Of a DNA stretch of 54,581 bases, positions 18,361 through 22,650 are shown one piece after another. The DNA is taken from assembly GCA_020724905.1 (NCBI GenBank), contig DYGB01000005.1:1-54581 (forward strand), in the 5' to 3' direction. Below the pieces are notes generated by a model that saw nothing but the letters and a program-made list of their open reading frames with translations, made no database searches and was not told where the DNA came from. Positions within the stretch are counted from its first letter, which is position 1, and each line of letters starts with the position of its first letter. The position numbers were made by a program, and so were the translations under genes. The DNA comes from Candidatus Paceibacter sp. GTDB taxonomy: Bacteria > Patescibacteriota > Minisyncoccia > UBA6257 > JAGOQP01.

Positions 18361-19133
18361 TCGTCCGTAATGATGTATAGAAAAGAATCTAAGACTATGT
18401 GCGGATGATACCCGATGTAGTATTCGTGTGTCCCGTCCGCCATGTGCGGATTTTTTATTTCTGAAACGCCGAAACGAAAGAACATTACAAATATCATATA
18501 GTCTATTGCGGCCCAATAGAGTGTATGCATTATAACCATTGCATCACATACTCTATCTCCCACTCACAACACTTCTAAAAAGTGGAGATAGATGTATACA
18601 AGAAAATAAATTTTATAAGGGCGTAGGACGGATGCCTTGACACTGTATGGCGATGAAGGACGTGGCGTAGCTGCGAAAAGCCTCGGGGAGATGCGTAGCA
18701 ATCTTTGATCCGGGGATATCCGAATGGGGAAACCTAACATAGCAAACCTATGTTGTTCTGACACATAAGAGGTCAGAATGCGAACCTGCTGAAGTGAAAC
18801 ATCTCAGTAAGCAGAGGAAAAGAGAACGAAGTTATTTCCTGAGTAGCGGCGAGCGAAAAGGAAAGAGCCCAAACCATCTCTAATTTATTAGAGGTGGGGT
18901 TGTAAGATATATGCGTTTCTTGTCTATTGCTCAGTTTTCTGAGCAATGTGCAAGAAGAAAAGTTACAAATTTTTTTGTTAGCTGAACTTTGTGGAAACAA
19001 AGACCAGAGAGGGCGAACGTCCCGTAGGCGAAAACAAAAAAACTTTTAGTGTATATTCTTGAGTACTTCGAGGAATGCAACCCTCGGAGGAATCATCCCG
19101 TACTATCGGGAAAGGCTAAATACATACAGTGAT

Positions 19134-19172
<39 letters not shown>

Positions 19173-19877
19173 GGCCGGTGAGGCCGATGAAATAGAACCT
19201 GAAATCCTACGCTTACAAGGAGCGAGAGCCCGTTACTCTATTATTTCGGTAATAGAGGGGGTGATCGTGTGCCTATTGAAGAATGAGCCAACGAGTTTAT
19301 GTATATCCCTGTCTAAGCTTTACGGAGCGGAGGCAGAGCGAAAGCGAGTCTTAAAAGGGCGACTATGGGGGTATGCATAAGACCCGAAGCCAGGTGAGCT
19401 TGCCTTGGGCAGGGTGAAGTTTCGAGAAATCGAAATGGAGGCCCGAACCGGTTGATTGTGCAAAATCTTCGGATGACCTGAGGTAAGGAGTGAAAAGCTA
19501 ATCGAACCTGGTAATAGCTGGTTCTCTCCGAAATAGCTTTAGGGCTAGCGTCGTAGAAAAACATAATGGGGGTAGAGCAACTGGTTGAGAAGTAAAGGGG
19601 GAAACCTCGCCTTCTCAGTCAAACTCCGAATACCGTTATGATCGCTACGGCAGTCAGAACGTGGGGGCTAAGCTCCATGTTCGCGAGGGGAACAGCCCAG
19701 ATCGTAGTCTAAGGTCCCTAAATATATGCTAAGTGTGAAAGGTGGTAATCTGCCCCAGACAGGTAGGAGGTTGGCTTAGAGGTAGCCATCCTTTAAAGAG
19801 TGTGTAACAACCCACTACTAGATGGCAGATTGCGCCGAAAATTTATCGGGGCTAAGCATATTACCGAAGACACGGAT

Positions 19878-20175
19878 ACATAGACTTCATAGAGGAAGTC
19901 GCACATTAATACAAAATTGCGAGGGAGATTCTGTATTTCAGAAATACAGAAGAAGAAAGTACGTCTTTCATCCCTCGCCCGAAATTGCAGGGTGGAGAAA
20001 TTGGTTATCTCACAAGATCAAGTACATAAAGGATGGAAATACTATTCAATATAATGGCTGGTAGTCATATTTGATTTTGAGAATGGAGGTTCGAACCCTT
20101 CCCCTGCAACGAAGTGCTACAAGCACTCACAATTCTGGCGAAGAATTTTCTTCGCCTCCTCTATGAAGTCTATGT
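19878..20175 (+). other. Intervening sequence in 23S helix 45
   Basis: 298 nt bounded by a perfect 19-bp inverted repeat ACATAGACTTCATAGAGGA/TCCTCTATGAAGTCTATGT, between CCGAAGACACGGA and GTGGTAGGAGAGC. Confidence 0.9.
19986..20109 (+). ncRNA. tRNA-like cloverleaf with expanded anticodon arm inside the 23S IVS
   Basis: Acceptor TGCAGGG/CCCTGCA plus A, D-arm GAGA/TCTC, T-arm GGAGG-TTCGAAC-CCTTC; 57 nt in place of the 7-nt anticodon loop. Confidence 0.8.
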
Positions 20176-21598
20176 GTGGTAGGAGAGCATTCTATATGTG
20201 CTGAAGCGGGATCCGCGAGGACCCGTGGAACGTATAGAAGAGAAAATGTTGGCATGAGTAACCGCAAGGGCGATGAGAATTCGCCCCCCCGAAAATCCAA
20301 GGGTTCCTCCGCAATGGAAGTCAGCGGAGGGTTAGGCGGTCCTAAGGCAATGGCGAAAGCCGCAGCCGATGGATAGCAGGTTAATATTCCTGCCCGTCAT
20401 TATGGTCCGATGGAGGGACGAGGTGTAGTATGGGAAGCGTCTTAATGGATTGGCGTCCTCAACTAAGGATTGCTGGATAGAAAATCTACTAGCGTATAAT
20501 CCAAGGGGAAAGGCGATACCTTCTTCGGAAGGTGCAGTTTCCAAAGCACATCTCTAAAAAAAGCTTCTAAGGATAACCATAGTGATACCGTACCGTAAAC
20601 CGACACAGGTGGATGAGGCGAGGAGCCTCAGGGGAACGAGTGAGTCATCCTCAAGGAACTCGGCAAAAAAGCGACTGTAACTTAGGGACAAAGTCTCCCT
20701 ATGGGTGCTTGCACCTATAGGGCGCAGCGAAAGTCTCTCTGGCGACTGTTTACTAAAAACACAGCTCCCTGCGAACTCGTAAGAGAATGTATAGGGGGTG
20801 ACGCCTGACCGATGCGAGAAGGTTAACGATTGGGGTGTATTGATTTCGGTCGATATGCTCACAGTCCGAAGCCCTCGTCAATGTCAGCCGTAACTATAAC
20901 GGTTCTAAGGTAGCGCATTTCCTTTCCGGGTAAGTTCCGGAGCGCACGAATGGCGTAACGACTGGAGAACTGTCTCGAGGATGAGCTCGGTGAAAATGCG
21001 ATTCCCGTAAAGACGCGGGATACCTGCAGTGGGACGAAAAGACCCCAGGAGCTTTACTGTAGCTTGATATTGGTATTAGTGTGTAACTGCGTAGTATAGT
21101 GGGGAGACGTTGAAGTTATGCTTTCGGGCATGATGGAGTCGACAGTGAAATACCCATCTTTTATATGTTAATATCTAACCGTACCGGTAAAAACGGTAGG
21201 GGACAGTGTCTGGCGGGCAGTTTCAATGGGGCGTTGTCCTCCCAAAAAGTAACGGAGGAGTTTAAAGGTCAGCTTGGTCCGGATGGAAATCGGACCTGAA
21301 GTGTAAAGGCAGAAGCTGGCTTAACGGCAAGACATACACGTCGCGCCGATGCGAAAGCAGAACTTAGTGACCCGACGGTAATATATAATGCTTTTTAAGT
21401 ATTATATTCTTCATAGGAAGGCCGGAGACAACGGATAAAAGCTACCCTGGGGATAACAGGCTGGTGAAGCCCGAGAGTTCATATCGACGGCTTCGTTCGG
21501 CACCTCGATGTCGGCTCACCCTAGCGCGGGGCTGAAGAAGGTCCCAAGCGTTTGGCTGTTCGCCAATTAAAAGGGTACGCGAGCTGGGTTTAGACCGT

Positions 21599-21854
21599 CA
21601 GCTTTAAAAAGCTGTGGCGGCTTTCTCGAGTAATCGAGATAGCAAAATCGACTCATATCGGTGAAGTCCTTTTATATAAAACCTGTATATATAAGGGTAA
21701 TACCGAGGGAAGTTAGAAAATATTCTAACCCCGTAGAGACTTTTCCTTTTATAAGGAAGGATGGAAACAGATCACTGTTCCATGAAACGTCGATCTCCTT
21801 ACAAATGTAAGGATGGTGGTATAGTCCATGCTATTGGTAACAATAGATAACATG
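21599..21854 (+). other. Group I intron in 23S after E. coli-equivalent U2593, no ORF
   Basis: Exons join as TTTAGACCGT|CGTGAGACAG; ends in G; core motifs CATATCGGTGAA, AATACCGAG, CGTAGAGACT, GGTATAGTCC. Confidence 0.92.
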
Positions 21855-21916
21855 CGTGAGACAGGTTGGTCTCTATCTACTGCAGGCGTTGATGTTTGAG
21901 GGAAGTTGATCCTAGT

Positions 21917-22249
21917 AAGATTTGCTACTCTTTACAGTAATGTAAAGTGACAATGCAGCTAATAACGATGAAACCTTGTTTATTCTGTTCCGTTGATAGC
22001 CACAATTTTATGGTCCAATAAATTGTGGTACAATTAACTTGAGGACCAGAATTAAAACAAGACAATATCGTGGGAAGTTGCTTTCAACATAAAAACATGA
22101 AAGTTAACCCCGTAACGACTTGTTCTAAATGTTTTCACATTTAGACGGATAGATGTTTCTAAATGTCTATAATACGCTGCCACCCAACGATTCGTATAGA
22201 ATACAGGGTGAAGATATAGTCTGCGCACATAGTGATATGTGATTTCGTG
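21917..22249 (+). other. Group I intron in the sarcin-ricin loop (after E. coli-equivalent U2656), no ORF
   Basis: Exons join as CCTAGT|ACGAGAGGACC; P1 TAGTAA/TTGCTA with U-G at splice site; CGTAACGACT and AAGATATAGTCT core; terminal G. Confidence 0.9.
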
Positions 22250-22538
22250 ACGAGAGGACCGGATTGAACAAACCCCTGGTGTACCAGCTTTAGTGCCAAC
22301 TGAATTGCTGGGTAGCTATGTTTGGTAGGGATAAGCGCTGAAAGCATCTAAGCACGAAGCCCATCCCAAGATAAGACATCAAGAACCCTCGAAGATGACG
22401 AGGTTGATAGGCTTTAGGTGTACGATCCGTAAGGATCTTAGCCGAGAAGTACTAATAGTTCGGATTTTTTCTTGTTTGCATCTAATCCACTTTTTAGAGT
22501 TGTTGTGATCAATGCGTGATATGGTTGTTGTCAGTGAT

Positions 22539-22650
22539 TTCCCGGTGATTTAGTGTAACGTGCACCACCTCTTTCCATTCCGAACAGAGAAGTGAAAGCG
22601 TTATACGCCGATGATACTCCCTCTTGGGGGAAAGTAGGCTTTGCCGGGAG
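22539..22650 (+). rRNA. rrf: 5S rRNA
   Basis: CCATTCCGAAC...GTGAA...CGCCGATGATACT...GAAAGTAGG; terminal stem CCCGG/CCGGG. Confidence 0.96.

Follow-up and report, generated by a model that had tools for sequence, protein, structure and literature searches.

The window analysed here, a 54,581-nt stretch of DNA from Candidatus Paceibacter sp. (contig DYGB01000005.1), contains a 23S rRNA gene that is interrupted by an insertion with a tRNA-shaped module in its interior. The gene occupies 18605-22475 on the + strand (RF02541, 2322 bits, full model) and is 3871 nt long, as compared with the 2925 positions of the model. Alignment of 19450-20650 to the large-subunit (LSU) rRNA model with cmscan placed the insertion, 298 nt at 19878-20175 on the + strand, as an unaligned segment in the hairpin loop at model position ~1218, which is the loop of helix 45, the classic intervening-sequence (IVS) site. 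The insertion replaces this loop and is closed by a perfect 19-bp stem: its 5′ strand (19878-19896, +, carrying the motif GACTTCATAGAGGA) is a 100% inverted self-match over 19 nt to its 3′ strand (20157-20175, +, carrying the motif CCTCCTCTATGAAGTC), and the pairing is present in the minimum free energy (MFE) fold of the insertion (-113 kcal/mol, z = -9.3). An earlier sequence-only reading of the window had described a helix-45 insertion with such a stem, and alignment, self-match and fold all bear this out. The same reading had raised the objection that the assembly might be chimeric. An independent DNA contig (run X1) runs continuously over 19782-20600 with 0 mismatches and the same architecture recurs in independent assemblies, and the insertion is therefore not an assembly chimera. 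In what follows, G000 denotes the genome that holds the window (as contig C6), other G-numbers denote genomes of relatives, and L-numbers denote individual helix-45 insertion loci.

The tRNA-shaped module is 124 nt long (19986-20109, +) and was delineated by ARAGORN with introns allowed and by direct reading of the sequence. Each of the tRNA features previously assigned to it was found in place. Its acceptor stem (19986-19992/20102-20108) consists of 7/7 Watson-Crick pairs, the D arm (19995-20011) reads GAGA/AATTGGTTA/TCTC and includes GG, the T arm (20085-20101) reads GGAGG/TTCGAAC/CCTTC, the variable region is 5 nt long, and U8 and A73 (at 20109) are both present. U8 and the GG-bearing D arm were confirmed by a test that is independent of the module-finding method, and the module is intact at every tertiary-interaction position checked in its sequence (U8, A14, G18-G19, U54-U55-C56, A58 and G53-C61). 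To judge from structure, the module has an acceptor/T minihelix and elbow of the kind that RNase P and RNase Z recognise. The anticodon arm (20013-20079, +) is extended, as had been proposed: folds and sequence give a 12-bp stem (20013-20024/20068-20079), including 2 G-U pairs, capped by 43 nt (20025-20067) that form two small hairpins and no 7-nt anticodon loop. A suggested likeness to initiator tRNA is weak, as the U1-A72 pair of the module is also found in the genome's two tRNA-Gln genes and in other insertion modules.

With introns allowed, ARAGORN called the module tRNA-Asn(att) with an "intron" of 48-50 nt, which corresponds to the extension of the anticodon arm; default ARAGORN gave no call for it. 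Only 4 intron-containing calls, the module included, were returned from the whole 575,572-bp genome (-i0,1200), and a chance match within a 298-nt insertion is thus very unlikely. No Rfam model matched 19850-20200 at E<=10, the group I intron model RF00028 included. A mimic of the transfer-messenger RNA (tmRNA) or bacterial Y-RNA-like (YrlA) type was likewise unsupported, with no Rfam match at E<=10 and no tmRNA found by ARAGORN -m. Comparison with the genome's own tRNAs revealed none that the module closely copies.

We considered whether the module could be a functional decoding tRNA from which an insert of 43-50 nt is spliced out. In the host genome (575,572 bp in 9 contigs, 98.5% complete), default ARAGORN and the Rfam tRNA model both give 41 tRNA genes with no tRNA-Asn among them, and ARAGORN's label for the module would fill precisely this gap. 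The candidate was rejected when ARAGORN with long introns located the genome's only tRNA-Asn(GTT) elsewhere, at G000:C5 49515-49832, with its anticodon loop split by a 245-nt intron; a group I intron (RF00028, 77.8 bits) lies inside the gene at G000:C5 49562-49779. A search for tRNA-Asn beside tRNA-Asp in four relatives did not find one. This intron-split gene completes the set for all 20 amino acids, and the module is therefore not needed for decoding. The module's insert contains no GTT and no excision of it yields a 7-nt anticodon loop with both U33 and a purine at position 37, the best splice by ARAGORN giving the loop ctatttg, with T at 37. The insert is also too short for a group I intron, and neither a tRNA-splicing endonuclease nor RtcB was found in the 98.5%-complete genome. 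A decoding role is accordingly the least credible of the explanations considered here, and we conclude, in agreement with the sequence-only reading, that the window's module is very unlikely to decode.

A search of 60 relatives with the whole insertion as a DNA query returned chance-level matches only. Related insertions were instead reached through the 23S flanks and the motif of the closing stem. In an order-wide survey, the conserved flank was searched in 301 genomes and matched in 189; 146 places were obtained, 143 of them with both anchors. Insert length at helix 45 in these 143 regions varies between 13 and 753 nt, with 49 inserts of 90 nt or more. In 7 of these 49, intron-tolerant ARAGORN detected sense-strand tRNA-like genes, as compared with 0 on the antisense strand and 0 in shuffles. 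Ten of the 143 regions, from five families of the order (f1, f5, f14, f17 and f22), share a scaffold with the window. Its consensus is 5′ NNNN-GGRYTTCAYAGAGGA on one side and, on the other, a hairpin followed by CCTCYTCTRTGAARTCC-NNNN. Both closing-stem strands of the window conform to motifs kept across the family, and the hairpin that lies directly before the window's 3′ strand (GGCGAAGA-ATTT-TCTTCGCC, 20137-20156, +, MFE fold) has a counterpart at the same place in family members.

The family was then enlarged by two pattern scans. The first, of genome contigs, used a pattern that was too short and returned 119 loci, of which 8 adjoin 23S flanks, the others being chance matches; it added 4 new members. 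A more specific pattern, applied to metagenomes, matched 31 loci, of which 28 had the upstream anchor; they represent 21 distinct inserts, one of which is identical to L016, leaving 20 new ones. The resulting set comprises 35 distinct insertions from relatives and metagenomes, 34 of the scaffold type and one (L017) that bears a tRNA within a different stem. When the exact scaffold-plus-flank pattern was searched in 401 genomes of the class, many of which lack an assembled 23S gene, it matched only G000 and G012.

A scan for a T arm combined with a 7/7 acceptor stem found one to five sense-strand tRNA-shaped modules in 21 of the 35 insertions. Controls included the antisense strand, which gave 0, and shuffling of the full set of 35, which yielded on average 0.06 modules per shuffle. 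Among the 28 distinct modules, U8 is present in 25 and a GG-bearing D arm in the expected register in 17, features that occur together at 4.3% of arbitrary positions. A tRNA covariance-model scan of related 23S insertions, which had been suggested as a check, proved informative: 18 modules in 10 loci (9 modules in 5/10 loci of one set, 9 more in 5/5 loci of another) passed the Rfam tRNA gathering threshold with 33.7-68.7 bits, as compared with 32.6-77.6 bits for host tRNAs, and some, at 63-69 bits, are canonical tRNAs. Module lengths cluster at 70-90 nt and at 100-174 nt; the additional nucleotides lie in the anticodon loop (9 ARAGORN calls) or, as read from the sequences, in the D loop. The longest insertion, L105 (753 nt), carries five modules in tandem, and L287 and L292 each contain a 123-nt module whose anticodon arm is extended and branched, like that of the window. 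At the other extreme is L061, 67 nt long, a bare scaffold that lacks a tRNA module. These results bear out in part the expectation that homologous insertions would keep the acceptor, T and, less regularly, D arms: such modules are common in the family, while no orthologue of the window's own module was found. We conclude that the window's insertion belongs to a family in which a conserved scaffold holds a variable, tRNA-derived cargo.

A 7-bp terminal stem followed by N-CCA was present in 20 of 34 insertion cores, including members that lack a T-loop motif. In this test CCA ranked first of all 64 trinucleotides (median 6), with a mean of 2.9 and a maximum of 8 in shuffles and 4 on the antisense strand. 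By eye, CCA is encoded in ~15 of 27 modules and in 8-9 of 40 G000 tRNA genes, a comparison from which nothing is inferred because the modules come from other genomes.

A canonical anticodon loop (7 nt, U33, purine at 37) was found in 12 of 28 ARAGORN-called modules, as opposed to 40 of 41 host tRNAs, which indicates that most family modules cannot decode. Among the departures are C, A or G at position 33, a loop of 3 nt, and long insertions. In line with this, the genome of one relative (G169) has a normal tRNA-Thr(CGU) in addition to its Thr(CGU)-like module. Comparison of close pairs points to a different fate for the remainder of the molecule. At 96% identity, L287 differs from L292 within the module at 5 positions, each of them in the extension of the anticodon arm. 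In L282 and L296, which have a module in common, the acceptor, D and T parts are almost the same, apart from a 1-nt length difference at the variable-region junction; their anticodon stem-loops are unrelated, and compensatory changes occur in other stems. As far as can be judged from the sequences of these few close pairs, retention of the body alongside a freely varying anticodon arm speaks for some selection and against pure decay.

The alternative is that the module, formerly a genuine tRNA carried in the insertion and co-expressed with rRNA, is now a neutral pseudogene in decay with no present function. Such a history would accommodate the canonical 63-69-bit tRNAs of some members and the stepwise degeneration of others, in which the T arm has been lost and the stem and CCA are left. 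It would also fit the gain and loss of modules between close relatives (L282 versus L296), the existence of a module-free scaffold in L061, and the situation in G169, where a Thr(CGU)-like module, with a differing acceptor stem that has U1-A72, is redundant with a normal tRNA-Thr(CGU) elsewhere in the genome. Uniform decay, however, would not predict that differences between close pairs cluster in the anticodon arm or its extension and are accompanied by compensatory stem changes, nor does it readily explain a module like that of the window, with a perfect acceptor stem, a 12-bp extended arm and every checked tertiary position intact. We therefore regard neutral decay as unlikely, although it deserves more weight than a decoding role.

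RNA ends were located using assembled contigs of four runs placed on 19500-20600, among them X1 (DNA) and X16 and X17 (metatranscriptomes of one study). In X17, 3′ ends of the upstream 23S fragment fall at 19889-19893 (+). One contig of 102 nt covers 19788-19889 with 0 mismatches and continues into stray letters after 19889, and another does so after 19893. These letters read as Illumina adapter, and the cDNA inserts therefore ended at those positions. On the other side, contigs from X16 (190 nt) and X17 (195 nt) alike have 20165 (+) as their first position, with 0 mismatches, placing the 5′ end of the downstream 23S fragment there. The X1 DNA contig, unlike the RNA contigs, is continuous through 20165, and no RNA contig from the two runs joins across the insertion. 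Since 20165 pairs with 19888, the two RNA ends lie opposite one another within the closing stem, ~11-12 bp up from its base, leaving a short 3′ overhang. Staggered ends on paired positions fit the geometry of RNase III cleavage, allowing for slight trimming, and the genome encodes an RNase III (TIGR02191, 240.4 bits, above cut-off, at G000:C4 51498-52136). The helix-45 stub that remains is ~11 bp long, as compared with stems of 6-10 bp in relatives without an insertion. Across the five families the closing stem is conserved in sequence and not in pairing alone; the cut sites fall within the conserved scaffold sequence, a possible reason for this conservation. Contigs of X16, X17 and X8 do not cover the interior of the insertion (19907-20128), which is not evidence of absence; tRNA-like RNAs are, in addition, poorly captured by libraries of this type. 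Two joints seen in RNA contigs (19549>19787 in X17 and 19553>19756 in X8) were set aside, as their short sides measure 21 and 25 nt and they probably derive from other organisms.

The positions of these ends bear directly on a proposal of the sequence-only reading, namely that a tRNA mimic recruits RNase P and RNase Z to process the rRNA. According to this scheme, the mimic is the processing signal, and cuts at its borders fragment 23S rRNA in the manner of tRNA punctuation. The module does keep the acceptor/T minihelix and elbow nucleotides, many family modules encode CCA, and the host genome encodes an RNase P RNA (107.8 bits, at G000:C9 17586-17914). The observed ends, on paired stem positions 19889/19893 and 20165, are nevertheless removed from the tRNA borders (19985/86 and 20109/10) by 93-97 nt on the upstream side and by 56 nt on the downstream side. 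Exonuclease trimming from those borders would be expected to halt at the top of the duplex (19896/20157), not within it. RNase III is encoded, whereas no RNase Z above cut-off was found in the host genome (best match, 22 bits), and the scaffold exists without a module in L061. We therefore do not retain the proposal as the explanation of how the rRNA is cut, and consider it improbable, though not to the same degree as a decoding role.

Taken together, these data lead us to favour, as the probable explanation, a helix-45 IVS of a conserved scaffold family, found in one order of small-genome, CPR/Patescibacteria-like bacteria, that is excised in an RNase III-type manner and carries a tRNA-derived, non-decoding passenger that is subsequently matured like a tRNA. 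In the proposed sequence of events, pre-23S rRNA would fold the 19-bp closing stem, which would then receive a staggered cut near 19889/90 and 20164/65 from a double-strand-specific nuclease, for which the encoded RNase III is the likeliest candidate. This would leave 23S rRNA in two pieces held together by the ~11-bp helix-45 stub and free an RNA of ~275 nt. The freed RNA would carry the passenger, in which the acceptor/T minihelix, the D/T elbow nucleotides and U8 are kept and the anticodon arm has become a long capped helix. We infer that maturation would begin with RNase P cleaving on the 5′ side of U19986, after which the 3′ end would be trimmed and CCA added; an enzyme of the CCA-adding family (PF01743 family, 115.8 bits, at G000:C2 17325-17702) is encoded. 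The matured module may then accumulate or turn over as a tRNA-like small RNA. As envisaged, it would neither cut the rRNA nor read codons.

A number of observations weigh against this explanation. The evidence for the RNA ends comes from assembled contigs of two runs of one study and not from end mapping of raw reads, and the 3′ overhang observed is 1 nt or 5 nt, not the exact 2-nt signature of RNase III. As regards maturation of the passenger, A73 is followed by CGA with no encoded CCA, and the absence of an above-threshold RNase Z, noted above, counts here as well. The Rfam tRNA model (RF00005) does not match the module at its gathering threshold or even at E<=10. Without an orthologue, there is no covariation evidence for the window's module individually, and module detection is biased toward intact bodies, an ascertainment effect that could inflate the apparent conservation of the body. 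Finally, one scaffold is bare (L061) and another, L125, contains at insert positions 78-254 a 58-codon Cys-rich open reading frame (ORF) after GAAGGAG instead of tRNA modules, from which it follows that the module is dispensable for excision.

A more far-reaching possibility is that the scaffold is a dedicated cassette for the expression and release of non-decoding tRNA-shaped RNAs, one per large subunit, in which the body is selected, the anticodon arm is free to vary, and the products act in trans. We regard this as doubtful, and raise it for its implications. If true, such RNAs might titrate or guide tRNA-handling enzymes, carry amino acids outside translation, or serve as decoys for tRNA-targeting nucleases, and a function of this kind would be coupled to ribosome synthesis in one order of Patescibacteria.

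The arrangement resembles several known systems and differs from each. To our knowledge, known helix-45 IVSs are plain stem-loops or carry ORFs (23S_rRNA_IVP family). With the IVSs of Salmonella, Proteus, Leptospira, Campylobacter, Coxiella and others, which are excised by RNase III without religation, the window's insertion shares the site, a long closing stem, RNA ends within that stem and an encoded RNase III; it departs from them in a loop that carries one to five tRNA-derived modules across the family and in a stem whose sequence is conserved across five families. The tRNA-Ile and tRNA-Ala genes of the spacer between 16S and 23S, released by RNase P, are likewise sense-oriented tRNA units in an rRNA precursor, and some family modules match them in quality at 63-69 bits. 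The modules described here, however, lie inside a 23S helix loop and not between genes, only 12 of 28 have a usable anticodon loop, and the window's copy appears unable to decode. In plant mitochondrial t-elements, the mascRNA of MALAT1 and MEN-beta, and mitochondrial tRNA punctuation, a tRNA-like element sets the ends of its host RNA. These examples share with the module a non-decoding tRNA shape within a longer transcript and features for RNase P/Z and the CCA enzyme, whereas the host rRNA ends here lie in the closing stem and not at the module borders. Bacterial tRNA genes split by group I introns, of which the tRNA-Asn of G000 is one, have an insertion at the same place, the anticodon loop of a cloverleaf; the module's insert is 43-50 nt, has no group I features, and lengthens the anticodon stem to a continuous 12-bp helix.

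The sequence-only reading knew of no prior description of this arrangement, and our literature search similarly found no account of tRNA or tRNA-like units inside a bacterial 23S IVS, although the supplementary tables of PMC11270868 may list insertions at the helix-45 site. That paper is the most recent survey of rRNA insertions in the Candidate Phyla Radiation that we consulted; the portion of its text available to us does not contain the word tRNA, and regards short insertions other than introns, where they occur at known IVS sites, as probable RNase III IVSs. The portion available of PMC9297842 similarly does not mention tRNAs in insertions.

Helix-45 IVSs have hitherto been treated as inert stem-loops or ORF carriers, and the present family adds members with tRNA-derived cargo. 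As it spans the range from canonical tRNA to anticodon-less mimic, the family constitutes a natural series on the capture of a tRNA, the loss of decoding and the keeping of a processing shape, and it offers a case, open to direct test, of a tRNA-like RNA whose production would be tied in fixed ratio to that of ribosomes. It also carries a warning for annotation, in that tRNA and rRNA calls in Patescibacteria overlook nested genes; in the same genome, the tRNA-Asn gene was hidden by its group I intron.

The remainder of the window's insertion contains two further structured elements. Upstream of the module, MFE and centroid folds both predict a domain at 19919-19978 (+) in which an 8-bp stem (GCGAGGGA/TCCCTCGC) surrounds two hairpins; no homologue of it was found in other members of the insertion family. 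A small hairpin lies 3′ of the module at 20113-20127 (+, MFE fold). The scaffold strands themselves include a Shine-Dalgarno-like GAGGA on the 5′ side (window 19887-19896) and an anti-Shine-Dalgarno-like CCTCCT on the 3′ side (20155-20164), which may be a coincidence.

Elsewhere in the locus, a 5S gene lies at 22541-22649, downstream of the 23S rRNA gene. An Rfam scan did not find a 16S rRNA gene in the 54.6-kb window, so that 23S and 5S stand there without a linked 16S gene or spacer tRNAs. The 23S rRNA gene has two other large insertions, at 21595-21847 and 21898-22242 (260 and 340 nt relative to the model). Neither contains a long ORF, and they match RF00028 at 37.3 and 32.9 bits, below the gathering threshold of 50; the second scored 29.3 bits in a whole-genome search.

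Two features of other family members were also recorded. The commonest 7-mer of the insertion cores is GTTCTTT, which 18 of 35 contain, as against a mean of 0.59 and a maximum of 3 in shuffles. It sits ~10 nt after the 5′ scaffold strand or just past the module CCA, for example at insert positions 24 in L034, 243 in L207 and 172 in L287, and may be a nuclease or protein site; the window's insertion has no exact copy of it. Canonical-looking modules with a CUA (amber-reading) anticodon are present in insertions of two different families (L034, insert 133-206, and L105, insert 624-699), one of them scoring 65.5 bits. As a weak test based on a single gene, rpoB was inspected for TAG recoding in the two genomes concerned and had no in-frame stops. 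In G198 (C4, 14298-17408), the rpoB open frame is 2262 aa long, as compared with 1064-1078 aa in G169 and G000, and may represent an rpoB-rpoC fusion.

Besides the split tRNA-Asn gene, ARAGORN with introns called a tRNA-Thr(ggt) with a 202-nt insert at G000:C4 59497-59772, an insert that RF00028 does not confirm, and a further group I intron (80 bits) lies on the same contig at G000:C4 20413-20663.

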